64,000 nucleotides of DNA from an uncultured Bacilli bacterium (GTDB lineage: Bacteria; Bacillota_I; Bacilli_A; RF39; UBA660), in the NCBI GenBank assembly GCA_947625505.1, contig CANQON010000005.1, forward strand, positions 819 through 64,818, read 5' to 3'. The notes under the pieces were generated by a model, which saw nothing but the letters and a program-made list of their open reading frames with translations, did not search any database and was not told the DNA's origin. Made by a program: the position numbers and the translations under genes. Below are positions 3,181 through 54,848 of the stretch, one piece after another; position 1 is the first letter of the stretch, and each line of letters starts with the position of its first letter.

Positions 3181-4053
3181 TTAACTATGTGGATGATATT
3201 CATCATAATTTTTTCTTAATTCTTGATTAGATACATGCGTATATATTTGTGTTGTTGATATATCACTATGTCCTAATAGTTCTTGAATACTACGTAAATC
3301 AGCTCCATGATTAAGTAAATGTGTAGCAAACGAATGTCTTAAAGTATGGGGAGATAACTCTTTATTTATCCCCTTTTCATAGGCAATAGCTTTTAATATT
3401 TTAAAGAATCCTTGACGTGTCATTTTCTTACCATGATTATTTAAAAATAAATAATCATTATATTCTTTTTTTAGCATACTATCACGATATTCAGTAAGAT
3501 ATTTTTTTAAGTATTCAGTAGCATAATCACCTATCGGAATAATTCTTTCTTTACTACCTTTACCAATTGTTCGAACTAAAGCCATATCTAAATCGATATC
3601 ATGAACTTTTAAGTTAATTAATTCACTAACACGTAATCCACTAGCATACATTAATTCTAACATAGCTTTGTTACGATAACTAAAGGTATCAACTAAATTA
3701 ATATCTAAAAGATTATCGATATCTTCTTCATCTAAAGTTTTAGGTAATGCTTTATTAAGTTTAGGTAATTCAATATTTTCCATAGGATTATTAGATACAA
3801 CTTTCTCAATTACTAAAAACTTATAAAATGATCTTAAAGCAGATATATTACGTGCAATCGACTTTTTACTTTCTTCATGTTCTGTTAAATGTTTTAAATA
3901 TTTTTTAATATCTTTTTCATCAATACTAGTAATATTTTTATTTAAGAAAGTATCTACTTTAGTTAAATCACGGCGATAAGATTCTATAGTATTAGAACTA
4001 TATTTTTTATCGATTAATAAGTAATTACAAAATAATTCAATCTCATTTATCAT
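3181..4053 (-). CDS. xerD: site-specific tyrosine recombinase XerD-like
   Basis: N-terminal SAM-like domain (SSNTIESYRRDL). C-terminal catalytic motifs ASGLRVSEL, HTLRHSFATHLL and LGHSDISTTQIYTHV. Confidence 0.85.
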   Translation of the reverse strand: MINEIELFCNYLLIDKKYSSNTIESYRRDLTKVDTFLNKNITSIDEKDIKKYLKHLTEHEESKKSIARNISALRSFYKFLVIEKVVSNNPMENIELPKLNKALPKTLDEEDIDNLLDINLVDTFSYRNKAMLELMYASGLRVSELINLKVHDIDLDMALVRTIGKGSKERIIPIGDYATEYLKKYLTEYRDSMLKKEYNDYLFLNNHGKKMTRQGFFKILKAIAYEKGINKELSPHTLRHSFATHLLNHGADLRSIQELLGHSDISTTQIYTHVSNQELRKNYDEYHPHS

Positions 4054-4162: not shown

Positions 4163-5392
4163 ATGAATATGAATAATGATCCTTTAGCTATAAAAATGCG
4201 TCCTTTAAAAATAAAAGATGTTATTGGGCAAAAACATCTTTTAGGTAAAGATAAAATACTTTATAATTTAGTTAAAAATAAGAAATTATTTTCGATGATA
4301 TTATATGGTAAACCTGGTATAGGTAAAACTAGTATTGCTATAGCAATTATTAATGAATTAGGATTAAAATATCGCATCTTAAACGCAACTATAAATAATA
4401 AAAAAGACTTTGACATTGTTGTAGAAGAAGCTAAAATGTATAAAGGATTAGTTGTTATAATGGATGAAATACATCGTTTAAATAAAGATAAGCAAGATTT
4501 ATTACTTCCATATCTCGAAAGTGGATTAATAACTTTAATAGGTATGACAACATCTAATCCTTATCATAAAATTAATCCTGCTATTAGAAGTAGATGTCAA
4601 ATATTTGAGTTAAAAGAACTAACTAATGATGATATCATAGATGGTATAAAAAAAGCTTGTAAGAGTGAATATTTACCTAATATTAAGATAGATAATAAAA
4701 CAATGAAGATGATTGCTAATATATCGGGAGGAGACTTACGAGCTGCCTATAACTTACTTGAAGTAGCATACTATTCTACAAGTGACTTTCATATAACAGA
4801 AGAAGTAATTAAAAATATTAATAGTAAGCCTATATTCTTTCATGACAAGAATGAAGATGGCCATTATGATGTCATTAGTGCTTTTCAAAAAAGTATTAGA
4901 GGCTCTGATGTTAATGCTTCATTATATTATTTAGCTCGTTTAATCGAAGCAGAAGACTTAGATATCATATATCGACGTATGAGTGTTATTGCCTATGAAG
5001 ATATCGGACTTGCTAATCCTAGTATGGGGCCTAGAGTTGATGCCTGTATTAATACTTGTGAAAGACTAGGATTACCAGAAGCTAGAATACCTCTTGCTGT
5101 TATGGTAATAGATTTAGCATTATCTCCTAAATCTAATAGTGCTATTATGGCTCTTGATGCAGCCTTAGATGATATACATAATGGTTCAAGTGGAAACGTA
5201 CCAGATCATATTAAAACAACAGCCTTTGGCTATAAATATCCTCATGATTATCCTCATGCCTATGTAAAGCAACAATATTTACCTGATCAAATTAAAGATC
5301 ATCGCTATTATAAACCTAAAAATACAAGTAAATATGAAACTAATTTAAAAAATATTTATGATAATATTAATAGATTAAATGAAAAAGAGTAG
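4163..5392 (+). CDS. rarA: replication-associated recombination protein A (AAA+ ATPase RarA/MgsA)
   Basis: Walker A GKPGIGKTS, Walker B VIMDEIHR, and an MgsA C-terminal region (HYDVISAFQKSIRGSD..YYLARL). Confidence 0.9.
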   Translation: MNMNNDPLAIKMRPLKIKDVIGQKHLLGKDKILYNLVKNKKLFSMILYGKPGIGKTSIAIAIINELGLKYRILNATINNKKDFDIVVEEAKMYKGLVVIMDEIHRLNKDKQDLLLPYLESGLITLIGMTTSNPYHKINPAIRSRCQIFELKELTNDDIIDGIKKACKSEYLPNIKIDNKTMKMIANISGGDLRAAYNLLEVAYYSTSDFHITEEVIKNINSKPIFFHDKNEDGHYDVISAFQKSIRGSDVNASLYYLARLIEAEDLDIIYRRMSVIAYEDIGLANPSMGPRVDACINTCERLGLPEARIPLAVMVIDLALSPKSNSAIMALDAALDDIHNGSSGNVPDHIKTTAFGYKYPHDYPHAYVKQQYLPDQIKDHRYYKPKNTSKYETNLKNIYDNINRLNEKE

Positions 5393-5407
5393 TACCCTAC
5401 TCTTTAA
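5388..5407. terminator. bidirectional hairpin between convergent rarA and queH
   Basis: AAAGAGTAG-tacc-CTACTCTTT, a 9-bp stem overlapping both stop codons. Confidence 0.6.
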
Positions 5408-6000
5408 TTATGCTCTTTAGAATATTTACATCCACAGTAATCTTGACGATATAAATTAAATTCTTTAGATAATTCTAGTGATCTTTTATAGCCATTTTTC
5501 TTTTTAAAATCAGCATATAAATAATTAATATGATATTCTTTTTCTAATTCTTCCCCTATTTCATTAATCCAACTACTTATTTTATAAGGACTAATAGATA
5601 AAGTAGTTGTAAAATAATCAAAGTGATGCTCTTTAGCATACTTACATGCTCTTTCTAATCTTAATTTATAACAAGCATAACATCTTTTACTTTTTTCACC
5701 TAGTTCTTCTAATCCTTGAATAGCTAAGTCATAATCATCAGGATTATAATCATCAATAACTAATTTTACTTCATGCATATAATTTCTTTTAGGTAAAAAG
5801 TTTTGTAATTCTTCTAAACGGCGATTATATTCTTCTTTAGGATATATATTAGGATTATAATATAATATCGTAATATTAAAATACTTGCTTAAATATTCTA
5901 AGACATAACTACTACAAGGAGCACAACAAGCATGTAATAATAATGTAGGTGTTCCTTCTATATTATTTAATATTTCCTCTAATTTTAATTGATAATTCAT
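5404..6000 (-). CDS. queH: epoxyqueuosine reductase QueH (DUF208)
   Basis: LLHACCAPCS N-terminal Cys motif and C-terminal QDYCGC, at about 198 aa. Confidence 0.85.
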   Translation of the reverse strand: MNYQLKLEEILNNIEGTPTLLLHACCAPCSSYVLEYLSKYFNITILYYNPNIYPKEEYNRRLEELQNFLPKRNYMHEVKLVIDDYNPDDYDLAIQGLEELGEKSKRCYACYKLRLERACKYAKEHHFDYFTTTLSISPYKISSWINEIGEELEKEYHINYLYADFKKKNGYKRSLELSKEFNLYRQDYCGCKYSKEHN

Positions 6001-6027
6001 AAAACCTCCTAATGAAAAAGACTATTG

Positions 6028-6741
6028 TTAGCACGTACCATCACAATAAGTCTTATTCATTTCTTTGATATCATTTTCAAATGTCTTAGTAATTTCTTTT
6101 TTATCATTATCTGATAATTTAGTATAATTATCTTCATTAATAGTATATGAATCGATTACTTTACCATCTTTAATAAAGATAATCGTAGGCGCAAATATTC
6201 TTTTTTCATTAGTTATATATATTTTACCATTATAAAGATAATTAAAATCTTCTAATTGTTCATCAAATAATTCTAATAATTTGTAATAAGTACTTTTACC
6301 TTTAGTTAATAGTAATTTACCATTATCAACTCTAACAGATGAACGAATATCTTTAATATTTATATAATTAATGGTATCAACATGATAAATAAATGCTACA
6401 TCAAGTAATATTTGAACTACTTCACGACTAGCATTGCTTTCAGGAAATCCTAAATAGACAATGCCAGAATTATTGTTAAGTAATTCTTCTATTTGTTGGG
6501 TACTACTATATACCATAGGATTTTCATCTAAAATATTAAGATTAACTAGAATATCGCCATTTTCTAATTGCTTATTATTTAAGTCTTCATATTCTTTCTT
6601 AAATTTTTGGGCATCACTAACGACAATAGGAATATCACTTTCTTCTTCTTTACCAATATTTAAAGCAATGATAAATCCTCCAATTACTAATACTAAACTT
6701 AAGGTAAGAGCAAGTACTTTAGGAACTGTATTTTTTTTCAT
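6028..6741 (-). CDS. membrane-anchored thioredoxin-fold-like protein, no CxxC
   Basis: N-terminal signal anchor (VPKVLALTLSLVLVIGGFII). Start moved to the ATG at 6739-6741 behind GGAGTAGGTGA. YLGFPESNAS sits where thioredoxin-like accessory proteins carry CxxC. Ends in ..YCDGTC. Confidence 0.5.
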   Translation of the reverse strand: MKKNTVPKVLALTLSLVLVIGGFIIALNIGKEEESDIPIVVSDAQKFKKEYEDLNNKQLENGDILVNLNILDENPMVYSSTQQIEELLNNNSGIVYLGFPESNASREVVQILLDVAFIYHVDTINYINIKDIRSSVRVDNGKLLLTKGKSTYYKLLELFDEQLEDFNYLYNGKIYITNEKRIFAPTIIFIKDGKVIDSYTINEDNYTKLSDNDKKEITKTFENDIKEMNKTYCDGTC

Positions 6742-6747
6742 ATTCAC

Positions 6748-8490
6748 CTACTCCAAGATAGCCTTAATACGTCTTACTCCTGCTGAACTAGCTTCTTCCT
6801 TTTTAATTTTAAAACGACCTAATTCACTAGTATTTTTAACATGTGGACCTCCACATAATTCTTTAGATATATCTCCAATACTATATACTGTAACTATATC
6901 AGGATACTTCTCAATAAACATACATTCTGCTCCTGATGCGATAGCTTCTTCTTTAGGCATTTCTTCTCTCACTACATCTAATCCATCATTAATCCATTTA
7001 TTAACTAATTCTTCAGCACGATTCTTTTCTTCATCAGATAGCTTATGATCACAACTGAAGTCAAAACGCATACGTTCAGATGTTATATTAGATCCTTTTT
7101 GATGAACATCAGGCCCAACAACAACTTTTAAAGCAGCGTTAAGTAAATGGGTAGCTGTATGATACTTAGTTTCTATTTCACCATTACCTGCAAGTCCTCC
7201 TTTAAACTTACCTGCAGATGCTGTGCGAGATAATTCTTGATGTTCCTTAAATTTAGTTTCAAAACCTTTAACATCAACCGTTAAACCTTTTTCTGTAGCA
7301 AGTTCAACCGTAAGTTCAATTGGAAATCCATATGTATCATATAAATGGAAAGCTGTTGTTGCATCAATATTTTGATTATCTTTAGTTGCCTTTTCAAACT
7401 CTCTTAAGCCTTTTTCTAAAGTACGATTAAATTTAATTTTTTCATTTTTTAATACTTCTAAAACAACATTATAATTATATTCTAATTCTTTATAATAGCC
7501 TTTATATTTATCTAGTAATAATTTAGCTATTTCTTCTTCCCAATTACTATTAATATCAATATTTAAGTTTTTAGCATGTCTAATAGCTCTTCTTATTAAT
7601 CTTCTTAAAATATATCCTTGATCCGTATTACTAGGTTTAATACCTGCAGGATCAGCTGCAATAAAGACTGCTGTACGTAAATGATCAGCAATAATACGCA
7701 TACTTACTTCATTACCTTCATAAGGCAAATTAGATATCTTACTAATTAGTTCAATAACATCTTTCCAAATGCTAGATAAATAGTTATCATTAACGCCTTC
7801 TAAGATAGCTGTTGTTCTTTCAACACCCATACCTGTATCAACATTTTTTTTAGGTAATTCAGAAATAGATCCATCACTAGCTTTATTATATTGCATAAAA
7901 ACATTATTCCATATTTCTACCCAACGATTATCTTCAGGATCAAATACTTCAGGTATTTCATCCTCACTACGCCAGTAAAAGATTTCCGTATCAGCTCCAC
8001 ATGGACCTGTCTCTCCTGCAATCCAAAAATTATCTTCAATCGTTCTAGCAATTCTCTCTTTTTTAATACCTAAACTTAACCATTTATTATAACTAACTTC
8101 ATCAAATGGTATATCATTATTACCTGCAAAAACAGTAACAGCTAATCTATCGGTAGGAATATGTAATACTTCAGTTAAAAACTCATAACTCCAAGTAATA
8201 GATTCATCTTTAAAATAATCTCCTAAACTCCAATTACCAAGCATTTCAAAAAATGTATGATGCGTTGTATCTCCTACTTCATCTAAATCGATTGTACGAA
8301 TACATTTTTGATAATCACATAATCTTGTACCATAAGGATGTGTTTGTCCCATTAAATAAGGAATTAATGGTTGCATTCCTGCTGTATTAAATAATACAGA
8401 AGGATCATTTTCTGGTACTACAGGAGCACTAGGTATTTGTTTATGTCCTTTACTAATAAAAAAATCTATATATAAATCTTTAAGATTCAT
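6748..8490 (-). CDS. alaS: alanine--tRNA ligase, short form lacking the C-Ala domain
   Basis: Class II AlaRS core (FNTAGMQP, HHTFFEMLGNWS, WVEIWNNVFMQ) and editing-domain zinc motifs (HTATHLL, CGGPHV). Start set at MNLKDLYIDFF (ATG 8488-8490) behind GAAGGTGA. Only about 580 aa. Confidence 0.88.
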   Translation of the reverse strand: MNLKDLYIDFFISKGHKQIPSAPVVPENDPSVLFNTAGMQPLIPYLMGQTHPYGTRLCDYQKCIRTIDLDEVGDTTHHTFFEMLGNWSLGDYFKDESITWSYEFLTEVLHIPTDRLAVTVFAGNNDIPFDEVSYNKWLSLGIKKERIARTIEDNFWIAGETGPCGADTEIFYWRSEDEIPEVFDPEDNRWVEIWNNVFMQYNKASDGSISELPKKNVDTGMGVERTTAILEGVNDNYLSSIWKDVIELISKISNLPYEGNEVSMRIIADHLRTAVFIAADPAGIKPSNTDQGYILRRLIRRAIRHAKNLNIDINSNWEEEIAKLLLDKYKGYYKELEYNYNVVLEVLKNEKIKFNRTLEKGLREFEKATKDNQNIDATTAFHLYDTYGFPIELTVELATEKGLTVDVKGFETKFKEHQELSRTASAGKFKGGLAGNGEIETKYHTATHLLNAALKVVVGPDVHQKGSNITSERMRFDFSCDHKLSDEEKNRAEELVNKWINDGLDVVREEMPKEEAIASGAECMFIEKYPDIVTVYSIGDISKELCGGPHVKNTSELGRFKIKKEEASSAGVRRIKAILE

Positions 8491-8491
8491 T

Positions 8492-9145
8492 TTAATCACC
8501 TTCAATTATATTTATCATTTGTTCTACAACTTCATCAATTGACATATTAGTTGTATCTATGTATATAGCATCTTCTGTACGCATAAGTGATCCTACTTCT
8601 TTATGCATATCATTATAATCTCTTTTTTGAATACTATCTAATACTTCTTCAAAAGACATATCAATGCCTTTTTCTTTATTTTGTTCAAAACGACGACGTG
8701 CTCTCTCTTCTAAAGAAGCATCTAAGTAAAATTTATAATCAGCATTTGGGAAAACGACAGTAGTAATATCTCTACCTTCCATAATAACGTCTTTTCCTTC
8801 CGCCATCTTTCTTTGAAGATCAACCATATTAGCACGTACTTCTACAATACTAGAAATAGGAGAAACAATAGATGTTACATCTTTTTCTCTAATACGTTTA
8901 GATACATCTTCACCATCTAAATAAACTCTACCTTGATCATCAAATTCAATATTTATTTTACCAGATAATTCAATTATCTTATCTTTATCATCAATACTTA
9001 AATTATTATTAAGAGCTGCAAGCGCTACACAACGATATGTAGCTCCTGTATCAATCGTAACTAAATGACATCTAGAAGCAATAATAGGTGTAATAGTACC
9101 TTTACCACTACCTGCAGGTCCATCAATCGCAACAACTTTACTCAT
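8492..9145 (-). CDS. cmk: cytidylate kinase
   Basis: MSKVVAIDGPAGSGKGT P-loop start behind GGAGGAG, about 217 aa. The upstream part of the ORF-track extension overlaps the preceding gene. Confidence 0.9.
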   Translation of the reverse strand: MSKVVAIDGPAGSGKGTITPIIASRCHLVTIDTGATYRCVALAALNNNLSIDDKDKIIELSGKINIEFDDQGRVYLDGEDVSKRIREKDVTSIVSPISSIVEVRANMVDLQRKMAEGKDVIMEGRDITTVVFPNADYKFYLDASLEERARRRFEQNKEKGIDMSFEEVLDSIQKRDYNDMHKEVGSLMRTEDAIYIDTTNMSIDEVVEQMINIIEGD

Positions 9146-24175: not shown

Positions 24176-24252
24176 GGATCTTTAGCTCAGTTGGTTAGAG
24201 CATCCGGCTCATAACCGGGCGGTCGTAGGTTCGAGTCCTACAAGATCCACCA
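24176..24252 (+). tRNA. tRNA with CAT anticodon (Met, or lysidine-type Ile2), CCA encoded
   Basis: 77-nt cloverleaf with acceptor GGATCTT/AAGATCC, anticodon loop CTCATAA and T-arm GTAGG-TTCGAGT-CCTAC. The body resembles Firmicute tRNA-Ile(CAU), from memory only. Confidence 0.85.
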
Positions 24253-24254
24253 CT

Positions 24255-24339
24255 GCGAGTGTGGCGAAATTGGCAGACGCACTAGACTTAGGATCTAGCG
24301 CCGCAAGGCATGGGGGTTCAAGTCCCTTCACTCGCACCA
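24255..24339 (+). tRNA. tRNA-Leu (TAG anticodon), CCA encoded
   Basis: 85 nt with acceptor GCGAGTG/CACTCGC, anticodon stem CTAGA/TCTAG with loop CTTAGGA, and a long variable arm. Lies 2 nt after the previous tRNA. Confidence 0.85.
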
Positions 24340-34233: not shown

Positions 34234-34881
34234 CTATTTAAGAAACTTTTGAAAAGAACTATCAATCGTACTTTCTGTAATATCATTAGCCTTCTTATAA
34301 CAAGCATAAGCTATACCTAATATGTTATCTCCCTCATCACTAAAAAAGGTATTGGAAGCTAAACGGAATAAAGTTCTCTCATCATATCCAGAATCTAATA
34401 ATGTTTGATAAACAGATATTACGAGTTCTAAGATAGCAAGATGTTCTCTATTTGGATTATCAAAAGCAAACCTACTAGGTACAGCACTACTTAATCTTCT
34501 TTTAATACTTTCTTCAAATACATATTGATTACTACCTATTTTTATATCACCTTGTTCTATTAAACGTTCTTTAATAGACTTAATTATTTCATTAGGATCA
34601 TATAAAATATCACTACTAGCAATATCATCACAATGCGCTATATCAGTAACACATACATCATAACTACTAAATCTTAAATCACCAATAGTAAAATATTTAG
34701 ATATATGAGATTTACCTGGCAATACAAAATTAATAATATCAAAATTAGATGTATCATCTTCATAAGCAAATAAGGTACTACCTAAATAACTACCAGGATT
34801 CTTTATTAATTCAATTTCTATTTTAGCTTTAATAATAGCTTCTAGAATATTAACCTTTTCTTTTTGATCAAATAATATCAT
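34234..34881 (-). CDS. nucleotidyltransferase-fold-like protein with degenerate catalytic motif
   Basis: YLGSTLFAYEDDTSNFDIINFVL fits the hG[GS]-x(9-13)-D-h-[DE]-h pattern, except the second carboxylate is Asn. The C-terminal half is helical. Confidence 0.4.
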   Translation of the reverse strand: MILFDQKEKVNILEAIIKAKIEIELIKNPGSYLGSTLFAYEDDTSNFDIINFVLPGKSHISKYFTIGDLRFSSYDVCVTDIAHCDDIASSDILYDPNEIIKSIKERLIEQGDIKIGSNQYVFEESIKRRLSSAVPSRFAFDNPNREHLAILELVISVYQTLLDSGYDERTLFRLASNTFFSDEGDNILGIAYACYKKANDITESTIDSSFQKFLK

Positions 34882-34934
34882 AAACTCAACTCCAAGTTAA
34901 TATTCTATCATACCTCATAACGAAAAAAAAGAGC

Positions 34935-36179
34935 TTAACTAGCTACTTTTTCTGTATCTGTTTTTAATTCATATGTCTCCATAAAAGTTCTTAAAGTCTC
35001 ACGCATTCTTTCATATCCTAAATAACGCATATTATTAATAATAAAATTATCATAAGGCCAAATACGTTTTGACTTAGCTACATGATTAGCTCCAAAATCC
35101 ATTATGGCATATTCTTGTTCAAAGTCTTTAAATTCTTTACCTTCAGCATGTCTTAAAAATTCTTCACAAGCATCAATAAGTGATCCTCCATTTTGAAGTA
35201 TCCAGTTTTCAATACCTACGCCACCTAAACCACCATTTTGGCGATCTCCTTCTAGAATACCTCGAGCAGGTTTATAACTACCAGCCATTTTTAACATATC
35301 TTTAGCATACATAATATTAGCTAATACTAAACGATATTTTTGAGGATCTTGAGCCCTCATATTCTCTAATCTTTCTTTAATTGCATCCTCTGTTGAAAGA
35401 TAATTATCTTTTTGTGGTGTTAATGAAAAATCAATATCAAGAGGTTTTTCAAGTTCAGGAATAGTAACATCAACTAATCTTACTTTATAAGTAGAAGTCT
35501 TTGTAATATGTCCTTCAGCTTGTAAATCATTTTCTAATATTTGTTTTACTTTCCAAGTTAATTCAGGATTAAAACGAATTGTAAAATCAAAATCCCATTT
35601 TTGACTACCATCTAATGATGGAACATTAGTATATCGATCAGTAGATCCTGCTTCAACTAATTCAATATCCCCTCCTGAATTACATCCAATAGTAACAGTA
35701 AATCCATATTTACTTAATTGCCTAATAATTTCTTGATAAACTTTATCACGATAGAAATCAACTTGTCTTATATTTTCATCTATTTTACTTAAATACTTAT
35801 CTAAACCTGGAAAATATAAATTTGGTGAAAAAGTATAATCACCAGCTCCATATTCTTTTAAACCACCCATTCTTACACGAAATAAGCGAAATTCTTCTTC
35901 TGTAAATAATAATTGATTAGTTTCAGAATTATAAATAGGTATATATCTATTATTCATAGCTTCAAGTAATTTTATATCATTTACATTCATTGATTCTGTT
36001 AAATAAGGTGCTTTTCTATATGCTCTTAAATTACTAGGTACTACAATAATTGCTTCCATAGGGCTATTAACATAATAAAAAGGAACATTAGAAGTAGACT
36101 CTATTTTTTCTCCATGTAAAAATCTTTCCATTGTTTCTAAATCCCTTATTCCTAATCCCATTGTATCCATAAATATCAT
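34935..36179 (-). CDS. Pol-beta superfamily nucleotidyltransferase-like protein
   Basis: VEAGSTDRYTNVPSLDGSQKWDFDFTIRF (G-S ... D-x-D), a third acidic site PLDIDFSL, and a later helical motif GGLGGVGIENWILQNGGS resembling the GFSGY..ELL helix of class I CCA-adding/PAP-type enzymes. The start codon is uncertain among M1, M4 and M7. Confidence 0.5.
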   Translation of the reverse strand: MIFMDTMGLGIRDLETMERFLHGEKIESTSNVPFYYVNSPMEAIIVVPSNLRAYRKAPYLTESMNVNDIKLLEAMNNRYIPIYNSETNQLLFTEEEFRLFRVRMGGLKEYGAGDYTFSPNLYFPGLDKYLSKIDENIRQVDFYRDKVYQEIIRQLSKYGFTVTIGCNSGGDIELVEAGSTDRYTNVPSLDGSQKWDFDFTIRFNPELTWKVKQILENDLQAEGHITKTSTYKVRLVDVTIPELEKPLDIDFSLTPQKDNYLSTEDAIKERLENMRAQDPQKYRLVLANIMYAKDMLKMAGSYKPARGILEGDRQNGGLGGVGIENWILQNGGSLIDACEEFLRHAEGKEFKDFEQEYAIMDFGANHVAKSKRIWPYDNFIINNMRYLGYERMRETLRTFMETYELKTDTEKVAS

Positions 36180-36246
36180 CTCTATTCTCTAATATAATTA
36201 TACCTAACTCATTAATTATGTCAACTATAATAGTATGCCATATCTT

Positions 36247-37248
36247 TTATTTATTAATAACCTCCAATATTGCTCCACCATGTGTTTTAACTTTAATAGG
36301 TGTCAAAACATTAGAGTTTTTTAATTCTTCCATTGTTTTAGGCCTTACAATAACTAATTTATCTAGTTCATCATTAGTAAATACATAATAAGCAGGCATA
36401 TTCATTTCTTTAGATCTTTCTTTTCTAAAATTAATCAATCTTTCTTTTAAATCATCATTAATAGATATATTATTATTATTATAACAATACTTATTTTTAT
36501 AATATGTATAATAGTCAATAGATTCATTGAATGACAAGTTCAAATAAGAATTAGCAATTTCTTCCATACTCTTTTTTGTTTCTAAAATTTCATTAGAAGC
36601 TCTATGGTTTAAATCATATTCAATTTGTCTTATTAATGCATCAGCACGTAATATTTTATATTTCATATCTTTAGGTGCTCTTGTAGTATTTAAAATAGTA
36701 TCTTGATTAGCAGCTACAACTAAAACTTTTCGGTAATAATTAAACTTATTAGAACTTAATAATTTAGTTACTTTAGATGACTGACTTTCCCATATTTTTC
36801 TTACTACTTCTCTTTGTGCTTCTACTTGTCTTAAAGGTGAATACATTCCTTTCTTAATCTTTTTACCATTAATAGAAAATTCTCTTATAAAATCTCCTTT
36901 ATCTGTTACTGTAATATTTCCAACTAGATTTTTACATTCAATATAATATATATAAACAGGTGTTATAACTATATAATCAATCTGAGCAGTTAAATCATCA
37001 TATTTAAGTTTTATATCTCTTAATACATACATTCCTATGTGAGCTTTTTTTAATTGATAAGCTATTTCATTTTCTCCATCTAAACCTTTTTTAATTATAA
37101 ATAATTCACTTAATAATTCTTCATTATTAGGAAATTCATTATTTAATCTTATTAAGGCATCATATCTATCTTGTAAATCACTATTTTCTTTTATAAATAT
37201 AGTATCTTTAAATCTTAAAGAATCAATTACATTATCTATTAATCTCAT
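36247..37248 (-). CDS. NERD domain protein with C-terminal HRDC-like domain
   Basis: NERD pattern (GLDGENEIAYQL..., DYIVITPVYIYYIECKN). The C-terminal 70 aa are HRDC-like (PAYYVFTNDELDKLV..PKTMEELKN). Confidence 0.65.
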   Translation of the reverse strand: MRLIDNVIDSLRFKDTIFIKENSDLQDRYDALIRLNNEFPNNEELLSELFIIKKGLDGENEIAYQLKKAHIGMYVLRDIKLKYDDLTAQIDYIVITPVYIYYIECKNLVGNITVTDKGDFIREFSINGKKIKKGMYSPLRQVEAQREVVRKIWESQSSKVTKLLSSNKFNYYRKVLVVAANQDTILNTTRAPKDMKYKILRADALIRQIEYDLNHRASNEILETKKSMEEIANSYLNLSFNESIDYYTYYKNKYCYNNNNISINDDLKERLINFRKERSKEMNMPAYYVFTNDELDKLVIVRPKTMEELKNSNVLTPIKVKTHGGAILEVINK

Positions 37249-37275: not shown

Positions 37276-37458
37276 TTAATTCCACCATTTACTAATAATA
37301 TTTATATTTTGTTTAAAATCATTAAAATTTAATAGTTCCCAATATTTAACATTATACTTACTTAAAATATCAATAAATTCATAAGCTTCATATTCCAAAT
37401 CTCCTATACCATATTTACTAGGTAAAGAAAATATTGGTAATAAAATTCCTATATCCAT
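37276..37458 (-). pseudogene. 5' stub of a 4-alpha-glucanotransferase (malQ, GH77) gene
   Basis: MDIGILLPIFSLPSKYGIGDLEYEAYEFIDILSKYNVKYWELL matches the conserved GH77 N-terminus (GILLHxxSLPSxYGIGDxGxxAYxFxDFL...WQxLPL). It stops after about 60 codons, whereas full-length enzymes are about 500 aa. Confidence 0.6.
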
Positions 37459-37543
37459 ATTATATTTCACCATCTTAATTTTATCATAAAAATAATTAAA
37501 AACTAAGTATAACTTAGTCTTTAACTTATAATTATTATTTAAT

Positions 37544-37945
37544 TTATTTTTTATCATTAGTCCATACAAGCATTATACCTATAATCGGATACAATCCTAG
37601 TATTGGCCCAAACATACTAAACAAGTTATCTTCATTAACAAAACTGCCAATCATAAACAAGGCAAAACTAATCACACCTAATACAATTGATATTCTTACT
37701 TTTTTTCTAAATGCATCTTCTTTTACTTTTTTTTCAAATTCATAATTATCTATTTTTTCTCTCATATCTTGTTCATGCTTTGATTTTCGACTTTTTATTT
37801 TAGCATTTTCTACTCTTTCAATAGTAGTTGCTTCATCATCAATAAGCATTTTATTGCCACAATAATTGCAATAAACCTCATTTAATTCAGAATTTACTTT
37901 TAAATTAGCTCCACAATTATTACATTTTAATTCAATTAACTTCAT
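37544..37945 (-). CDS. zinc-ribbon membrane protein
   Basis: CNNCGANL...CNYCGNKM zinc ribbon, a charged helix, and two C-terminal TM segments. AAAGAGGAG RBS. Confidence 0.65.
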   Translation of the reverse strand: MKLIELKCNNCGANLKVNSELNEVYCNYCGNKMLIDDEATTIERVENAKIKSRKSKHEQDMREKIDNYEFEKKVKEDAFRKKVRISIVLGVISFALFMIGSFVNEDNLFSMFGPILGLYPIIGIMLVWTNDKK

Positions 37946-37990: not shown

Positions 37991-38056
37991 ATATCACAAA
38001 AAAAGACTAAGTTTCCTTAGTCTTTAATCTTTGTTATTAAGCTTGTTTTTCTTTGA
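37991..38056. repeat. 66-bp direct repeat, copy A (non-coding duplicate of the ppdK 3' end and terminator)
   Basis: Matches 39205-39270 at 63 of 66 positions and contains the same AAGACTAAG-gaaa-CTTAGTCTT hairpin. Confidence 0.9.
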
Positions 38057-38085
38057 AAGATTAATTACATCATAGTCACCAATTA

Positions 38086-38120
38086 ATAAAAAACACCTAA
38101 TTTCATAAAAGAAATTAGGT
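38086..38120 (-). terminator. rho-independent terminator of the abi cassette
   Basis: On the minus strand, ACCTAATTTC-ttttat-GAAATTAGGT (10-bp stem) followed by GTTTTTTATT. Confidence 0.8.
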
Positions 38121-38122
38121 AG

Positions 38123-38160
38123 ATTGACTTAAGGCTTCGTAAGTTTCTTAAATACTAATC
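38123..38160 (-). ncRNA. conserved bulged hairpin motif, copy 2 (3' of abi)
   Basis: Minus strand: GATTAGTATTTAAG-AAACTTACGAAGC-CTTAAGTCAAT. Same architecture as 39081-39118, with compensatory stem changes. Confidence 0.4.
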
Positions 38161-38189
38161 AATAATATTATATGAATTATCATCATAAT

Positions 38190-39059
38190 TTATACATTAG
38201 GATATCCCATAATTTTTAAAACTATTCTAGCATCTATTGATTTAATAGACTTATTTAATTTATCAAACTCTTTAGTAATCAAAGTTATTAAGTCATTGTA
38301 ATCTTGTTCATTTAAGAATTTTTCCATACTTCTAATTAACATATATAAATTAGTTGAATTGTTATTTATTTTATATGTGTTATCTATTAAGCTAAAAGTC
38401 ATAAAAAATTTACTATGAAAAGAAAATAATCTATCAGAATGAGCACAAATATTTCTTGCTAATGTCATATTAATAAGAATTTGTTTTAATAATTTTGGTG
38501 ATACATTAAATTTTTTAGCTATTTCATTTCTATCTGATTGTTTTAATAATCCATACCATCTACTTATTTGTCCAAAAGATAAGATTTTAATTGCAACAAA
38601 TGGAGGTATAAAGCCATAGGTTTGATCATAATGCGTAATAGCTGGATGCTTGCCTTTATTTTTATCTATTTCTGTTATGATAGAATCAATTACATCATTT
38701 ATATCATCTTCATTTGCTAATTCATCAAAATTTGTTTTGTTAAGATAATCTTTAATCCCATAATTCTTAGCAATTATATTTCCCATCATACCCCTTATTT
38801 TTAATTCAAATTCTAAAGCATACTTTAAAAATATAACTCTTATATTTTTATCAAAATCATATAAAGAATATATTTCATTAAAATGAACATTTTCAAAATA
38901 TGTATTATCATCTTTTTTAAATACATATTTATATGTGTTAATAACAGAATAATATGAATAATTATCTATAATATTTAAGGCTCTATTCTCATCATCAATT
39001 ATTACATTTTTATTTTTTAAATGTTCTAATAATTCTTCATTATGTTTATATTCTTTCAT
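38190..39059 (-). CDS. Abi_2 family abortive-infection protein (AbiD/AbiF-like, HEPN)
   Basis: N-terminal pattern ..LNIIDNYSYYSVINTYKY..F..V.F.EIYSLYDFDKNIR and the HEPN R-x4-H motif (LARNICAHSDRLF). Start taken at MKEYKHNEE behind GGGGGAA. Confidence 0.8.
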   Translation of the reverse strand: MKEYKHNEELLEHLKNKNVIIDDENRALNIIDNYSYYSVINTYKYVFKKDDNTYFENVHFNEIYSLYDFDKNIRVIFLKYALEFELKIRGMMGNIIAKNYGIKDYLNKTNFDELANEDDINDVIDSIITEIDKNKGKHPAITHYDQTYGFIPPFVAIKILSFGQISRWYGLLKQSDRNEIAKKFNVSPKLLKQILINMTLARNICAHSDRLFSFHSKFFMTFSLIDNTYKINNNSTNLYMLIRSMEKFLNEQDYNDLITLITKEFDKLNKSIKSIDARIVLKIMGYPNV

Positions 39060-39080
39060 ATAATATTCCCCCATAAAAAA

Positions 39081-39118
39081 ATTGACTCAGGGCTTCATAA
39101 GTTTCCTGAGTACCAATC
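39081..39118 (-). ncRNA. conserved bulged hairpin motif, copy 1 (abi 5' leader, attenuator-like)
   Basis: Minus strand: GATTGGTACTCAGG-AAACTTATGAAGC-CCTGAGTCAAT followed by TTTTTTT. A 7-bp core stem, GU bulge and 4-bp distal stem, lying between the predicted TSS and the RBS. Confidence 0.45.
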
Positions 39119-39125
39119 GTTAAAG

Positions 39126-39155
39126 AGTATATCATATATTTGTATATAAAGTCAA
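39126..39155 (-). promoter_or_regulatory. promoter of the abi cassette
   Basis: On the minus strand, TTGACT, 18 nt, TGaTATACT (extended -10). Confidence 0.55.
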
Positions 39156-39204
39156 TACAATTGTATATACATTCAATGCATTATTAATGTAATTTTTATA
39201 AAAA

Positions 39205-39270
39205 ATATCATAGAAAAAGACTAAGTTTCCTTAGTCTTTAATCTTTATTATTAAGCTTGTTTTTCTTTGA
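39205..39270. repeat. 66-bp direct repeat, copy B (last 20 nt of ppdK plus its terminator)
   Basis: See copy A. Positions 39251-39270 encode ..IKEKQA-stop of ppdK. Confidence 0.9.
39212..39239 (-). terminator. ppdK rho-independent terminator
   Basis: On the minus strand, AAGACTAAG-gaaa-CTTAGTCTT followed by TTTTC. Confidence 0.75.
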
Positions 39271-41875
39271 TTGCAGCTTGAGCAGCAGCTAATCTAGCAA
39301 TAGGTACTCTAAATGGAGAACAAGATACATAAGTTAATCCTACATTATGGCAGAATTCTACTGATGATGGATCTCCTCCATGTTCACCACAGATACCTAA
39401 TTTAATATTAGGTCTAGTAGCTTTACCTTTACTAGCAGCCATTTCAACTAATTGTCCTACACCAGTTTGATCTAGTTTAGCAAATGGATCTTGCTCATAA
39501 ATCTTATGATCATAATATGCACCTAAGAATTTACCTGCATCATCTCTAGAGAAACCAAAAGTCATTTGTGTTAAGTCATTAGTACCAAATGAGAAGAATT
39601 CAGCTTCTTTAGCTATTTCATCAGCTGTTAAAGCAGCTCTTGGTATTTCAATCATAGTACCAATATGATATTCCATATCAGAGTTTTTCTCTTTCTTAAC
39701 TTGTTCAGCTACTTCGACAACAATATCCTTAACAAATTTTAATTCTTTAACTTCACCTACTAATGGAATCATAATTTCAGGTACAATATCGTATCCTTCT
39801 TCTTCTTTAACTTCAATAGCAGCTTCCATTAAAGCTCTTGTTTGCATTCTAGCTATTTCTGGATAAGTAACAGCTAAACGACATCCTCTATGTCCCATCA
39901 TTGGGTTGAATTCATGTAATTCGTCACATTTAGCTTTTAAATGCTCTACAGATACATTCATATCTTTAGCTAAAGCTTCAATATCAGCTTCTTCTTTAGG
40001 TAAGAATTCATGTAGAGGTGGATCTAAGTAACGTACTGTCATTGGTAATCCTTTTAATACCTTATACATAGCTTTAAAGTCACCTTTTTGGAATGGAATT
40101 AAAGCGTCTAAAGCAGCTTCTCTTTGTTCAACTGTTTCAGATAAGATCATCTTACGAATAGCTGGAATTCTTTCTTCATCAAAGAACATATGCTCAGTAC
40201 GACATAATCCAATACCTTCAGCTCCTAATTCAACAGCTTTCTTAGTATCTGTAGGGTTATCAGCATTAGTTCTTACTCTTAATCTTCTATATTTATCAGC
40301 CCATTCCATAACACGTCCAAATTCACCTGCGATAGTTGCATCAACAGTAGGAATAGCTCCATCATAAATATTACCAGTAGATCCATCAATAGAGATAACA
40401 TCTCCTTCATGGAATGTTTTACCAGCTAAAGTGAATTGTTTATTAGCTTCATCCATTTGGATTTCACCACATCCAGATACACAACAAGTACCCATACCAC
40501 GAGCAACAACAGCAGCATGAGAAGTCATACCTCCACGTACTGTTAAAATACCTTGACTAGCTTTCATACCTGTAATATCTTCTGGAGATGTTTCAAGTCT
40601 AACAAGAACAACTTTCTTACCTTCAGCATGCCATTTTTCAGCATCTTCAGCAGAGAAGACAACTTGTCCACAAGCAGCACCTGGAGATGCTCCTAATCCT
40701 TTACCAATAGCTTGTGCTTCTTTTAAAGCTTTTTGATCAAATTGTGGATGTAGTAATGTATCTAAGTTTCTAGGATCTATCATTAAGACAGCTTCTTCTT
40801 CTGTACGCATTCCTTCATCTACTAAATCACAAGCAATTTTTAAAGCAGCTTGTGCTGTACGTTTACCATTTCTTGTTTGTAACATATAAAGTTTACCATG
40901 TTCAACAGTAAATTCCATATCTTGCATATCACGATAATGTTCTTCTAGAGTTTTACATACCTCTTTAAATTGTTCAAATGCTTCTGGGAATTTTTGTTCC
41001 ATTTCAGCAATCTTCATTGGTGTTCTAACGCCTGCAACAACGTCTTCACCTTGAGCATTAGTTAAGAATTCACCAAATAAACCTTTTTCACCTGTAGCAG
41101 GATCTCTTGTGAAAGCAACACCAGTTCCACAATCATCACCCATGTTACCAAAAGCCATTGATTGAACGTTTACAGCAGTTCCCCATGAATAAGGAATATC
41201 ATTATCTCTTCTATAAACATTAGCTCTTGGATTATCCCATGATCTAAATACAGCTTTAATAGCTCCCATTAATTGTTCTTTTGGATCATCAGGGAAATCA
41301 GTTCCAATCTTATTCTTATATTCAGCTTTAAATTGGTTAGCTAATTCCTTTAAGTCATCAGCATCAAGTTCTACATCTTGTTTTACCCCTTTTTCAGCTT
41401 TCATTTTATCAATTAATTCTTCAAAGTATTTTTTACCAACTTCCATAACAACATCAGAATACATTTGAATAAATCTTCTATAACAATCCCATGCCCATCT
41501 TGGATTATTACTCTTTTCAGCTAAAACATTAACAACATCCTCATTTAATCCTAAATTAAGGATTGTATCCATCATACCAGGCATAGATGCTCTAGCTCCA
41601 GATCTAACAGAAACTAATAAAGGATTTTCTTTATCTCCAAATTTCTTTCCTGTTATCTCTTCCATTTTACCAATATACTCATTGATTTGACTTTGAATTT
41701 CAGCATTAATTTCTCTACCATCCTCATAATATTGAGTACAAGCTTCAGTTGTAATTGTGAATCCTTGAGGAACAGGTAGACCAATATTTGTCATTTCAGC
41801 AAGGTTAGCGCCTTTACCACCTAATAGGTTACGCATGTCAGCATTACCTTCTGTAAATAAGTATACATATTTCAT
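39251..41875 (-). CDS. ppdK: pyruvate, phosphate dikinase
   Basis: 874 aa and collinear with PPDK: ATP-grasp N-terminus, phospho-His loop GGMTSHAAVVARG, and PEP-utilising C-terminal GICGEHGGDP. Strong TAAGGAGG RBS. Confidence 0.95.
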   Translation of the reverse strand: MKYVYLFTEGNADMRNLLGGKGANLAEMTNIGLPVPQGFTITTEACTQYYEDGREINAEIQSQINEYIGKMEEITGKKFGDKENPLLVSVRSGARASMPGMMDTILNLGLNEDVVNVLAEKSNNPRWAWDCYRRFIQMYSDVVMEVGKKYFEELIDKMKAEKGVKQDVELDADDLKELANQFKAEYKNKIGTDFPDDPKEQLMGAIKAVFRSWDNPRANVYRRDNDIPYSWGTAVNVQSMAFGNMGDDCGTGVAFTRDPATGEKGLFGEFLTNAQGEDVVAGVRTPMKIAEMEQKFPEAFEQFKEVCKTLEEHYRDMQDMEFTVEHGKLYMLQTRNGKRTAQAALKIACDLVDEGMRTEEEAVLMIDPRNLDTLLHPQFDQKALKEAQAIGKGLGASPGAACGQVVFSAEDAEKWHAEGKKVVLVRLETSPEDITGMKASQGILTVRGGMTSHAAVVARGMGTCCVSGCGEIQMDEANKQFTLAGKTFHEGDVISIDGSTGNIYDGAIPTVDATIAGEFGRVMEWADKYRRLRVRTNADNPTDTKKAVELGAEGIGLCRTEHMFFDEERIPAIRKMILSETVEQREAALDALIPFQKGDFKAMYKVLKGLPMTVRYLDPPLHEFLPKEEADIEALAKDMNVSVEHLKAKCDELHEFNPMMGHRGCRLAVTYPEIARMQTRALMEAAIEVKEEEGYDIVPEIMIPLVGEVKELKFVKDIVVEVAEQVKKEKNSDMEYHIGTMIEIPRAALTADEIAKEAEFFSFGTNDLTQMTFGFSRDDAGKFLGAYYDHKIYEQDPFAKLDQTGVGQLVEMAASKGKATRPNIKLGICGEHGGDPSSVEFCHNVGLTYVSCSPFRVPIARLAAAQAAIKEKQA

Positions 41876-42544: not shown

Positions 42545-43444
42545 CTATGATTTATGTGCTCTTGGATGAGCATTTAAATATACACCTCTTAATCTTTCAT
42601 TAGTAAGATGCGTATAGATAGTTGTAGTACTTAATGATTCATGTCCTAATAATTCTTGAACACTACGTAAATCAGCTCCATTATTTAGCATATCTGTTGC
42701 AAAAGTATGTCTAAGTACATGGGGTGAAATATGTATTTTAAGTCCTGAGGCTGCTACTATATCATCTAATACATTTCTTACTTCCCGAGGATTAATCTTT
42801 CTTCCTGTTTTACTAAGTAATAAATAATCACTACTATATTTAAGATTATATAATTTATCTCTTCCTTTACTTAAATATTCTTTTAATTTATATTCACATG
42901 TTTTACCAAATAAAACAATTCTTTCTTTACTACCTTTACCTAAGATATTTATTTCTTTATTATTAAAATTAATATCTTTTAGTCTTATATTAACTAGTTC
43001 ACTAACACGTACACCTGTAGAATATAATAATTCTAATATTAAGGAATCACGTAATCCAAGTGGTGTATTAAGATTAGGAATATTCATTAATGTTTCTAAC
43101 TCTTTAGGATATAAGATTTTAGGTAATTTTTTTTCTTGTTTAGGATTACTAATTAAAAGCATAGGATTATTATTGATAAGATCATATTTTTTTAAATATT
43201 TAAAGAAACTACGTAAAGAACTTATATGACGCGCTATAGCTTTACTAGCATATTTCTTATCATATAAGTAATTTAAATATTTTCTAATTAATTGATAATC
43301 AATCTTTTTAATATCTTGAACTTTTTCAATAACTAAAAAGTCACTAAATAATTCTAAATCATCACGATAATTAATAATCGTATTCATCGAATACTTTTTT
43401 TCATTAGCTAAGACATCTAAAAAGTCATTAATATAATTTTTCAA
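42545..43444 (-). CDS. xerC: site-specific tyrosine recombinase XerC-like
   Basis: STGVRVSEL, HVLRHTFATDML and LGHESLSTTTIYTHL motifs. Apparent TTG start 5 nt after AAGAGG. Confidence 0.85.
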   Translation of the reverse strand: MKNYINDFLDVLANEKKYSMNTIINYRDDLELFSDFLVIEKVQDIKKIDYQLIRKYLNYLYDKKYASKAIARHISSLRSFFKYLKKYDLINNNPMLLISNPKQEKKLPKILYPKELETLMNIPNLNTPLGLRDSLILELLYSTGVRVSELVNIRLKDINFNNKEINILGKGSKERIVLFGKTCEYKLKEYLSKGRDKLYNLKYSSDYLLLSKTGRKINPREVRNVLDDIVAASGLKIHISPHVLRHTFATDMLNNGADLRSVQELLGHESLSTTTIYTHLTNERLRGVYLNAHPRAHKS

Positions 43445-54611: not shown

Positions 54612-54848
54612 TTTATCATCCTTCCTAATAAAAAAAGTATTATGAGTATAGGAGTGAGTATAAACCCATGGTACCATCCTATTTCATAATACTATTATGC
54701 ACTTAAGACTATAACGCGTCACCGTTATAAATTTTCTTTTATAACACTAGAAAGTGAATTCTTTAAGATTAATTATTCATTTCCACCAACCATGAACTCT
54801 CTATTAATTAATTACTTAAATACTACTCTTTCATTATCGCTTTCAAAA
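54612..54848 (-). promoter_or_regulatory. T-box leader, Phe specifier (UUC)
   Basis: Minus strand: stem I start GCGATAATGAAAGAGTAGTA, AGAGAG box with GGTTGGTGGAA, specifier loop GAA-TTC-A (TTC = plus 54756-54758), and T-box sequence GGATGGTACCATGGG. Terminator AGTATTATGA...TCATAATACT plus T7 at 54630-54693. Confidence 0.85.

Follow-up and report, generated by a model that had tools for sequence, protein, structure and literature searches.

A predicted AbiF toxin/RNA module between duplicated ppdK ends in an uncultured Bacilli bacterium

The DNA considered here is a stretch of 64,000 nucleotides from an uncultured Bacilli bacterium (GenBank assembly GCA_947625505.1, contig CANQON010000005.1, forward-strand positions 819 to 64,818), which is called the window below. 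Behind the gene for pyruvate phosphate dikinase (ppdK) it carries a cassette with a gene of the Abi family, and this cassette is bracketed by two 66-nt direct repeats that contain the end of ppdK. All of the genes from ppdK through the Abi gene to the zinc-ribbon gene that follows are on the minus strand. We infer that the cargo is a two-component AbiF-type toxin/RNA module. The ppdK 3' end is a recurrent hotspot for insertion and exchange. With about even confidence, we read the 66-mers as the scar of a recombination between a cassette-bearing and a cassette-free ppdK end.

The original prediction, made from the sequence alone, had described direct repeats at 37991-38056 (copy A) and 39205-39270 (copy B) with three mismatches, and this description was confirmed. 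The two copies are identical at 63 of 66 positions, begin 1214 nt apart, and enclose 1148 nt. The mismatches fall at plus-strand repeat positions 7, 9, and 43, which leaves an identical core of 33 nt that holds the hairpin. A 31-nt core of the repeat was found at only two sites in the window, where none is expected (100 shuffles), and the core of the 66-mer gave no match in the IMG/VR viral contigs or in the JGI metagenomes. As had also been proposed, copy B includes the last 20 nt of ppdK and the ppdK terminator hairpin, and copy A is a noncoding duplicate that reaches the extended -10 element of the next gene. The ppdK portion of copy B runs from the second base of an Ile codon (..IKEKQA-TAA, with the stop at 39251-39253), and its terminator (39216-39239) has a 10-bp stem and a GAAA loop. 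The end of copy A falls inside TGTGATATAAT (37997-37987, minus strand), in the -10 region upstream of the zinc-ribbon gene. Within the 1148-nt interval the sole open reading frame (ORF) is that of the Abi protein, in keeping with the earlier statement that integrase, transposase, and inverted repeats are lacking. Chance similarity or an assembly artifact is so improbable an origin for these repeats that we regard it as refuted. Metagenome contigs of the same strain do break at or near the repeats, but each junction recurs, at 100% identity, in six independent contigs, zero such repeats with 63/66 identity are expected by chance, and the copies differ at three positions and are thus not a collapsed node.

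The product of the Abi ORF was matched by the Pfam family Abi_2 (PF07751; 3.3e-42, 183 of 184 profile positions covered) and by the PADLOC model for AbiD (3.8e-52). It also matched the chain 8vz6_A of the PDB ('Abi family protein') with an E-value of 4.8e-14 over residues 3-214, through the catalytic region. The HEPN R-x4-H motif reads RNICAH and aligns with the RNSCCH region of 8vz6_A; its R, N, A, and H residues are invariant in 13 homologues that are 53-90% identical. A total of 1371 homologues were found at E<=1e-20. The ORF as called spans 38190-39074, and the true start was assigned to the second ATG, at 39059, because the homologues all begin with MKEYK and a GGGGGA sequence lies 8 nt upstream. 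The cassette promoter is near-consensus and is conserved with the module in L089, L095, L097, and L008. The description of the cassette as a self-contained unit therefore stands with respect to its own promoter, Abi ORF, and terminator, with two corrections: the terminator stem is 11 bp rather than 10 bp, and the start codon has moved. Its description as a single-gene cassette does not stand, since a conserved hairpin RNA partner is present.

This partner appears as an inner pair of direct repeats, absent from the original prediction, that hugs the ORF on both sides (hairpins 1 and 2 in Table 1). Each hairpin in the window consists of the loop AAACUUAYGAAGC on a 7-bp stem, and the two stems differ by compensatory changes. 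The same hairpin was found on both sides of the ORF in every orthologue that was fetched (L089-L102 and L008) and in 73 of 73 testable metagenome loci, whose Abi homologues are 45-82% identical. In general, one copy lies 20-60 nt 5' of the start codon and the other 30-100 nt 3' of the stop. Across the subfamily (loci L089-L182), the loop AAACUUWNGAAGC and a covarying 7-bp stem occur on both sides in all members examined. In a set of 49 distinct hairpin sequences the 7-bp stem is 100% paired, and 8 of 14 pairs have changed on both sides. The covariation score was determined to be 0.427, compared with 0.224 for shuffled alignments, and none of 500 shuffles reached it; pairing falls from 94% to approximately 53% when the partner is slid by one column. 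The transcript start predicted from the promoter lies at the foot of hairpin 1, and the order on the mRNA would thus be hairpin, ORF, hairpin, terminator.

The AbiF protein of Clostridioides difficile is a toxic HEPN protein that is neutralized by direct binding of the noncoding RNA (ncRNA) RCd22, which contains two 'abiF motif' hairpins, and the related PbAbiF (PDB 8VZ6) is a dimer bound to two copies of its ncRNA (PMC12373285). By analogy, the hairpins of the window are probably the RNA partner, an antitoxin and regulator, of the neighboring AbiF. They would bind and neutralize an RNase dimer, with two hairpins for two subunits, and the toxin would be freed upon infection by a phage. Two points count against this assignment of the cargo: the toxin and antitoxin activities are taken from homologues, and the Rfam abiF model (RF03085) did not match the hairpin. 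The latter search gave nothing at the gathering threshold, nor at E<=10 with queries of 1.4 kb and of 76 nt, and no other Rfam family was found for either the hairpin or the 66-mer at gathering or permissive E-values on the same 1.4-kb and 76-nt segments, where only chance matches appeared. The silence of the Rfam model, together with the presence of one hairpin at each end of the ORF, marks the motif and its arrangement as a variant. In a sister species whose ppdK is 90% identical (L003, 12690-12850), the cassette promoter, one hybrid hairpin, and the terminator are found with no abi ORF. The ORF of L003 seems to have been deleted from one hairpin repeat to the other, so that an orphan small-RNA gene remains behind ppdK.

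When approximately 90 ppdK loci were scanned for downstream copies of the ppdK end, displaced ppdK tails were found behind integrase-less islands in five lineages (the window, L008, L028, L064, and L097). The exchange hotspot that had been suspected at the 3' end of ppdK is borne out by these tails and by elements that start at CAAGC in at least three hosts. The search for other cargo between such repeats, which had been suggested earlier, returned varied islands between ppdK tails in L008, L028, L064, and L097 (Table 1). Directly ahead of the distal tails of L064 and L097 there is a conserved right arm, TCCYRAACNAAACWGTGRYA|CAA, and the first island genes of these two loci encode helix-turn-helix (HTH) proteins that are 65% identical to each other. 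The island of L064 (12626-19658) contains genes for an NT5C nucleotidase, radical SAM, Amdase-like, and HhH-GPD proteins, a deoxynucleoside kinase, and PfkB-like and MazG-like proteins; it looks like a nucleotide or DNA-modification gene set that is possibly antiphage.

The family of these HTH proteins points to a clear mobile element. An identical 163-aa HTH protein and a split ParB-like pair lie directly behind ppdK in at least three hosts (L184, L186/L190, and L189), and the same HTH protein lies behind right-arm-like sequences in three further contigs. The sequence shared by all copies of this HTH/ParB element starts precisely at the CAAGC that encodes Gln-Ala in ..AAAQA.., and it supplies a ppdK tail of its own, QAHLRQKAAEKQGK-stop. 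Junctions at the CAA(G/T)C of ..AAQ.. were found in L064, L097 (two elements), L184, L186, L189, and L193. The islands form a family without integrases that starts at this CAAGC and is closed by the conserved right arm; left ends were located in L184, L186, L187, L188, L189, L190, and L191, and arms in L064 (19639), L097 (5046 and 6148), L193 (approximately 6050), and L103. The left module, composed of the HTH protein (163 aa), a ParB_N protein (137 aa), and a 154-aa protein, is 100% identical across hosts, and the cargo varies widely. Searches with the three proteins of this module returned regulator and split ParB-like matches only and no recombinase. One member of the family (L189) bears a Mob_Pre relaxase and an IS110 element. 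Among viral contigs, the right-arm pattern had no match and the HTH protein had one distant match. The position itself has a precedent, since the PvCTn-like conjugative transposons of Bacteroidota integrate at GYSGCNCARGCKGCHRTHGA in the 3' end of ppdK (PMC11005914).

The cassette of the window can be compared with the same cassette in relatives. In L193, where the Abi protein is 83% identical, the order is xerC, tdk, ppdK, CAAGC, a foreign tail (AAVREKMDK-stop), 26 nt, and the AbiF cassette, followed by approximately 100 nt, the right arm GCTTCCCAAACAAAGTAGTGATA|CAAGC, the old tail with its terminator, and a transketolase gene. This locus is an AbiF-only mini-element of approximately 1226 nt, compared with a spacing of 1214 in the window. 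The cassettes of L103 and of the first island of L097 likewise end in the right arm, CAAGC, and the old ppdK tail. The element-borne tails of L193, L097, and L184 are foreign, whereas both tails of the window are native-like, being orthologous to the tail and terminator of the cassette-free L004 and to the outermost copy (copy 3) of L097. Copy B and the left flank of the cassette are colinear with L003, which has one copy only. The right flank of the window follows that of L103, L193, and L097 up to ...TAATTAATCTT and then jumps to TCAAAG... In those three loci the flank continues for approximately 55-80 nt to the right arm and CAAGC, whereas in the window it stops at copy A; the joint skips approximately 80 nt, in which lie the right arm, the CAAGC core, and the initial 10 nt of the tail. 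The att motif is thus found ahead of copy B only, and the cassette flank, not the motif, precedes copy A.

The native tails, the distal copy that lacks arm and core, and the left junction that is continuous in L003 lead us to read the 66-mers as a scar. The original prediction had likened them to attL and attR of a site-specific event. That likeness was not upheld: both copies are native-like and the core is absent before copy A, and a motif present only once means that the 66-mers cannot be a working pair of attachment (att) sites. A cassette-bearing locus (ppdK, tail, terminator, AbiF, as in L003) would have been joined to a cassette-free one (ppdK, tail, terminator, zinc-ribbon gene). Besides homologous recombination, this would take a single illegitimate joint, ...AATCTT|TCAAAG..., located 20 nt ahead of the ppdK stop. 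In one route, a circle made up of the 66-mer and the cassette would have entered a naive site by Campbell-type integration; in the other, homology-facilitated illegitimate recombination would have placed naive DNA behind the cassette. The states at the three mismatches, T;C,A in copy B and C;T,G in copy A, are those expected if a T;T,G site and a C;C,A donor had recombined by a single crossover within the 33-nt core. The event would have struck a genuine integration hotspot, where the final conserved codons of ppdK contain an att site that receives integrase-less islands, some of them with the same AbiF cassette.

It is possible, though we consider it doubtful, that the 66-mers are instead a decayed attL/attR pair. 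The cassette would then be an integrase-less mini-element, similar to a cis-mobilizable element (CIME), that a tyrosine integrase recognizing specifically the att motif of the ppdK tail had mobilized in trans. In that case copy B would have come in with the element as a replacement for the original tail, which would survive, displaced, as copy A. An approximately 80-nt deletion would later have removed the right arm and the core, and gene conversion would have homogenized the tails. The size of the L193 mini-element is close to the spacing in the window, the right arm follows the cassette in L103 and L097 and the 7-kb island in L064, and CAAGC is exactly where the identical HTH/ParB element starts in three ppdK hosts, with the element adjoining right arms in other contigs. 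The published attB of Bacteroidota ppdK has the same motif (PMC11005914), and the CIME, an element that has no integration or transfer genes and keeps its att sites, is an established concept (PMC5704250). However, copy B is native-like and colinear with L003, the repeat begins 10 nt past the core, and the distal copy has no core. This route also calls for at least two further events, namely a deletion and a conversion that has no homology in its flanks. No integrase was found at either end of the islands examined, nor downstream of ppdK in the approximately 90 loci.

The 33-nt identical core would allow a RecA-type deletion of the cassette across the repeats. Among the contigs with an identical zinc-ribbon protein, L083-L085 and L087 show the filled junction, and in L086 ppdK is joined to the zinc-ribbon gene through a single 66-mer. 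An empty site of this form had been anticipated. The 66-mer of L086 reads T;T,G, with the state of copy B at the first mismatch and that of copy A at the other two, and the contig is otherwise base-for-base identical to the window over 1.8 kb. This identity outside of the repeat led us to reject L086 as an ancestral empty site. Either recombination of the two repeats within this strain produced it, or it is an assembly chimera, since the 33-nt identical core exceeds the k of 31 used for the Logan contigs; L088, from a sister run, begins exactly where the shared k-mers end. The empty junction was therefore found in the expected form, but in the same strain and perhaps as a chimera. Of the earlier proposal that the cassette could be lost or gained by recombination between the repeats, loss is plausible from the 33-nt core and L086 but unproven, and gain is unsupported. 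If the module is addictive, like toxin/antitoxin pairs in general, structures flanked by repeats would persist instead of collapsing.

Several observations weigh against the interpretation of the repeats as a scar. The cassette is held in a clearly site-specific setting (right arm, CAAGC, old tail) in L193, L103, and L097, and the window could thus be a decayed att pair. The left ends of the ppdK-tail duplications in the five lineages fall within approximately 13 nt, which favors a specific site over random joints. Neither a donor circle nor a naive allele from an independent strain was found, there is no clear microhomology at the joint, and the one empty junction comes from the same strain in a contig that may be chimeric.

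Duplicated target DNA is not limited to ppdK. Direct repeats were sought just outside the hairpin-bounded cassette at 53 nonredundant AbiF loci, and flanking duplications of 19-125 nt were found at 11 of these, compared with 2 of 90 shifted control positions, both of them weak. Brackets of duplicated native target DNA, 24 to more than 250 nt long, were seen at L104, L107, L108, L120, L128, L130, L135, L148, L170-L172, and L008. In nine independent contexts the duplications range from 24 to 125+ nt, and in L128 the duplication is at least 258 nt. The duplicated DNA is that of the native target: the flank of a tRNA-Met gene (L170-L172), a whole small gene (L148), half of a terminator (L104), and intergenic DNA (L107 and L108). 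No conserved element termini were found among 12 repeat-flanked AbiF cassettes. The window and L008 belong to this duplication-flanked class, and the enrichment may reflect either a common route of insertion or selective preservation by toxin-antitoxin addiction.

One form of this idea is that AbiF cassettes insert by duplication of their own accord, through template switching or staggered breaks that copy 24-300 nt of the target to both sides, with the ppdK site being incidental or favored by its terminator hairpin. We hold this to be quite improbable for the window. The enrichment extends to unrelated contexts, the lengths vary, there are no conserved termini or inverted repeats, and L008 has a different AbiF subfamily between its two ppdK tails. 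Against this, L003 has the same left junction without a duplication, no mechanism or enzyme was found, and the right flank is truncated; a truncated copy of a longer element flank is better fitted by one illegitimate joint than by a defined mobile unit. A broader proposal, unlikely as it may be, is that AbiF toxin/RNA modules are mobile without a dedicated recombinase. Each would arrive with a 24-300-nt target duplication on both sides, and the insertions would be frozen by addiction, since loss of the module would kill the cell. The hairpins would also serve as recombination substrates through which the toxin ORF could be lost, leaving an orphan antitoxin small RNA as in L003. Several target sites would be favored, among them the ppdK tail, which the modules would share with a new family of HTH/ParB islands that occur in Bacillota and have no integrase.

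A recombinase that might serve the ppdK tails was sought in several ways. An iterative hidden Markov model search for tyrosine and serine recombinases among 2924 ORFs of all fetched loci found none in or beside the ppdK-tail islands. A gene for a tyrosine recombinase (42545-43444, minus strand) lies two genes upstream of ppdK, and it could be supposed that this XerC-type enzyme captured the cassette in the manner of an integron, using the hairpins or the terminator palindrome as sites. The gene is found upstream of tdk-ppdK here and in L064, L186, L193, and L091, and L003 resembles a precise excision of the ORF between the two hairpins. Nevertheless, we consider this capture very improbable. 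The protein passes the NCBIfam cutoff for the XerC equivalog (344 vs 335 bits), the paired XerD equivalog is encoded at 3181-4053 on the minus strand (375 vs 330 bits), and the integron-integrase model gives 139 bits against a cutoff of 265. The island hosts L184, L028, and L008 have no adjacent Xer gene, no dif-like or attC-like sequence was found, and the function of the hairpins as RNA explains their conservation. The neighboring recombinase was accordingly rejected as the integrase of the islands, since its adjacency is a matter of xerC-(tdk)-ppdK synteny, which is kept in L064, L186, L193, and L091, and it is absent in some of the island hosts. An integron cassette was likewise dismissed, there being no IntI. 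The integrase encoded downstream in L014 is unrelated to the ppdK tail. A transposon or insertion sequence with a target-site duplication was excluded by the lack of a transposase, of terminal inverted repeats, and of conserved termini.

The features of the locus and the ppdK-tail duplicates are collected in Table 1.

Table 1. Features of the ppdK-AbiF region of the window, and ppdK-tail duplicates with positions relative to the ppdK stop codon
Feature	Position	Strand	Basis or remark
ppdK (pyruvate phosphate dikinase), 874 aa, native-type C-terminal tail ..AAQAAIKEKQA-stop	39251..41875	-	ORF; PPDK_N, PEP-utilizers, and PEP-utilizers_C domains on identical contigs; tail orthologous to L004, L008, L028, and L097 copy 3
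attB-like motif GCTGCTCAAGCTGCAATCAA, CAAGC core 39276-39280; present once; overlaps first 4 nt of copy B, otherwise upstream	39267..39286	-	18/20 positions of published ppdK attB GYSGCNCARGCKGCHRTHGA
Repeat copy B: final 20 nt of ppdK with stop, ppdK terminator hairpin 39216-39239, and 11 more nt	39205..39270	-	
Cassette left flank TTTTTATAAAAATTACATTAATAATG...; same sequence continuous in sister species L003	39156..39204	-	alignment
Cassette promoter	39126..39155	-	-35 TTGACT (39155-39150), 18-nt spacer, TG-extended -10 TATACT (ending at 39126)
Hairpin 1 (5' untranslated region) GATTGGTACTCAGGAAACTTATGAAGCCCTGAGTCAAT, putative RNA antitoxin or AbiF-binding element	39081..39118	-	covariation; no Rfam match
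AbiF-type (Abi_2/AbiD/F) HEPN RNase toxin gene (predicted), 289 aa, RNICAH	38190..39059	-	Pfam, PADLOC, and 8vz6_A matches
Hairpin 2 (3' untranslated region) GATTAGTATTTAAGAAACTTACGAAGCCTTAAGTCAAT, loop as in hairpin 1, compensatory stem changes	38123..38160	-	
Cassette terminator, 11-bp stem followed by T run	38094..38121	-	kept with module in all contexts
Cassette right flank ...GACTATGATGTAATTAATCTT	38057..38093	-	homologous to flank in L103, L193, and L097 (alignment)
Repeat copy A: displaced noncoding ppdK tail fragment and terminator hairpin 38002-38025; no att motif	37991..38056	-	
Zinc-ribbon membrane protein gene, first of variable stretch between ppdK and pfkB	37544..37945	-	ORF, family match; contigs L083-L088
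Window tail duplicate	-20 to +46		
L008 tail duplicate	33 nt and diverged terminator		flanks different AbiF subfamily
L028 tail duplicate	about -30 to +11		1.9-kb island: zinc-ribbon membrane protein and HTH protein
L064 tail duplicate	-21 to +129		95% identical; 7-kb nucleotide-metabolism island
L097 tails	three in tandem		island 1: HTH, 231-aa protein, AbiF; island 2: 265-aa protein

Exact look-ups of the Abi protein of the window, as 294 and as 289 aa, returned no match, because the metagenome contigs of the same strain break inside abi. These contigs break approximately 50 nt into abi and at hairpin 2 (the ends of L001 and L002 and the starts of L083-L085), and many contigs of the homologues are just 1-1.3 kb long. 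Such breaks and short contigs suggest several cassette variants or genomes per sample. In one lineage (L095, L096, and L192, approximately 5001-8738), the AbiF cassette lies directly upstream of ppdK, in the order DUF3841-AbiF-ppdK and in another chromosomal neighborhood, which indicates that the linkage of AbiF and ppdK outlasts rearrangement.

Beyond the zinc-ribbon gene of the window, the genes of the variable stretch are entirely different in the related species L004, L097, and L193. An ORF at 37276-37569 (minus strand) corresponds to only the first ~42 residues of 4-alpha-glucanotransferase (GH77, malQ), and this gene remnant points to a past rearrangement of the stretch between ppdK and pfkB. 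It is followed on the minus strand (34234-37248) by the gene for a NERD-HRDC protein (36247-37248) and those for two proteins with no family match, of 414 aa (34935-36179) and 215 aa (34234-34881), and the conserved pfkB and Smr genes lie beyond. The NERD-HRDC protein and the 414- and 215-aa proteins may be further defense cargo. Unrelated to the cassette are a T-box leader (54647-54846, minus strand; 105 bits) and two adjacent tRNA genes (24176-24336, plus strand).

As a landing site for mobile elements, the ppdK 3' end was known from Bacteroidota, and these results add low-GC gut Bacillota and Clostridia, where the islands carry defense cargo and no recognizable integrase. They also define a large AbiF subfamily whose RNA partner would be a new hairpin motif at both ends of the mRNA. 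This arrangement bears on the pairing of protein and RNA in AbiF-type systems, which are proposed ancestors of Cas13. The duplicated target DNA around AbiF offers a testable case of how a toxin-antitoxin defense module moves and persists. For annotation, the 66-mers are best labeled as a probable recombination scar and the cassette as a predicted two-component system, with loss through the repeats plausible but unproven.

The cargo of the window is a known kind of system, an AbiF toxin with an RNA partner, in a new arrangement and with a hairpin motif that Rfam does not detect. AbiF(Cd)/RCd22, from the phi027 prophage of C. difficile, and PbAbiF are AbiD/F HEPN toxins with hairpin-ncRNA antitoxins, in systems that resemble type III toxin-antitoxins. 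The module of the window shares with them the Abi_2/HEPN R-x4-H protein, an adjoining conserved hairpin RNA, a sigma-A promoter, cotranscription, and two hairpins per unit. It differs in having one hairpin 5' and one 3' of the ORF instead of an upstream tandem pair with a terminator in between. In addition, the hairpin of the window is not detected by RF03085, the module resides in a chromosomal hotspot rather than a prophage lysis module, and its function is predicted. A protein RNase toxin and a repeated structured RNA in the same transcription unit are also found in the type III system ToxIN. There, ToxI is an upstream tandem array that is processed by the toxin, whereas in the window the ORF has a single copy on either side and encodes a HEPN toxin rather than a member of the ToxN/AbiQ family.

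The location is a known kind of att site that is newly seen in Bacillota. PvCTn-like conjugative transposons use the same ..A-A-Q-A-A-I.. codons of ppdK, and their integration regenerates the ppdK stop and leaves imperfect direct repeats (PMC11005914). Those transposons are large elements of Bacteroidota with their own integrases, whereas the islands described here are 1.2-7+ kb in length with no integrase found, and the distal repeat of the window has no motif. The islands resemble CIMEs in having no integration or transfer genes and in their position, bracketed by repeats of the 3' end of the conserved gene behind which they lie, and the three ppdK tails of L097 resemble tandem accretion. 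A CIME has a functional attL and attR, whereas the distal site of the window has lost the core that is present in L193 and L103, and no parent integrative and conjugative or integrative and mobilizable element with an integrase was found, although L189 bears its relaxase. The cassette resembles that of an integron in running from promoter to terminator between hairpin-forming repeats and in having an ORF-less version in L003, but it has no IntI and no attC or attI consensus, and it carries its own promoter.

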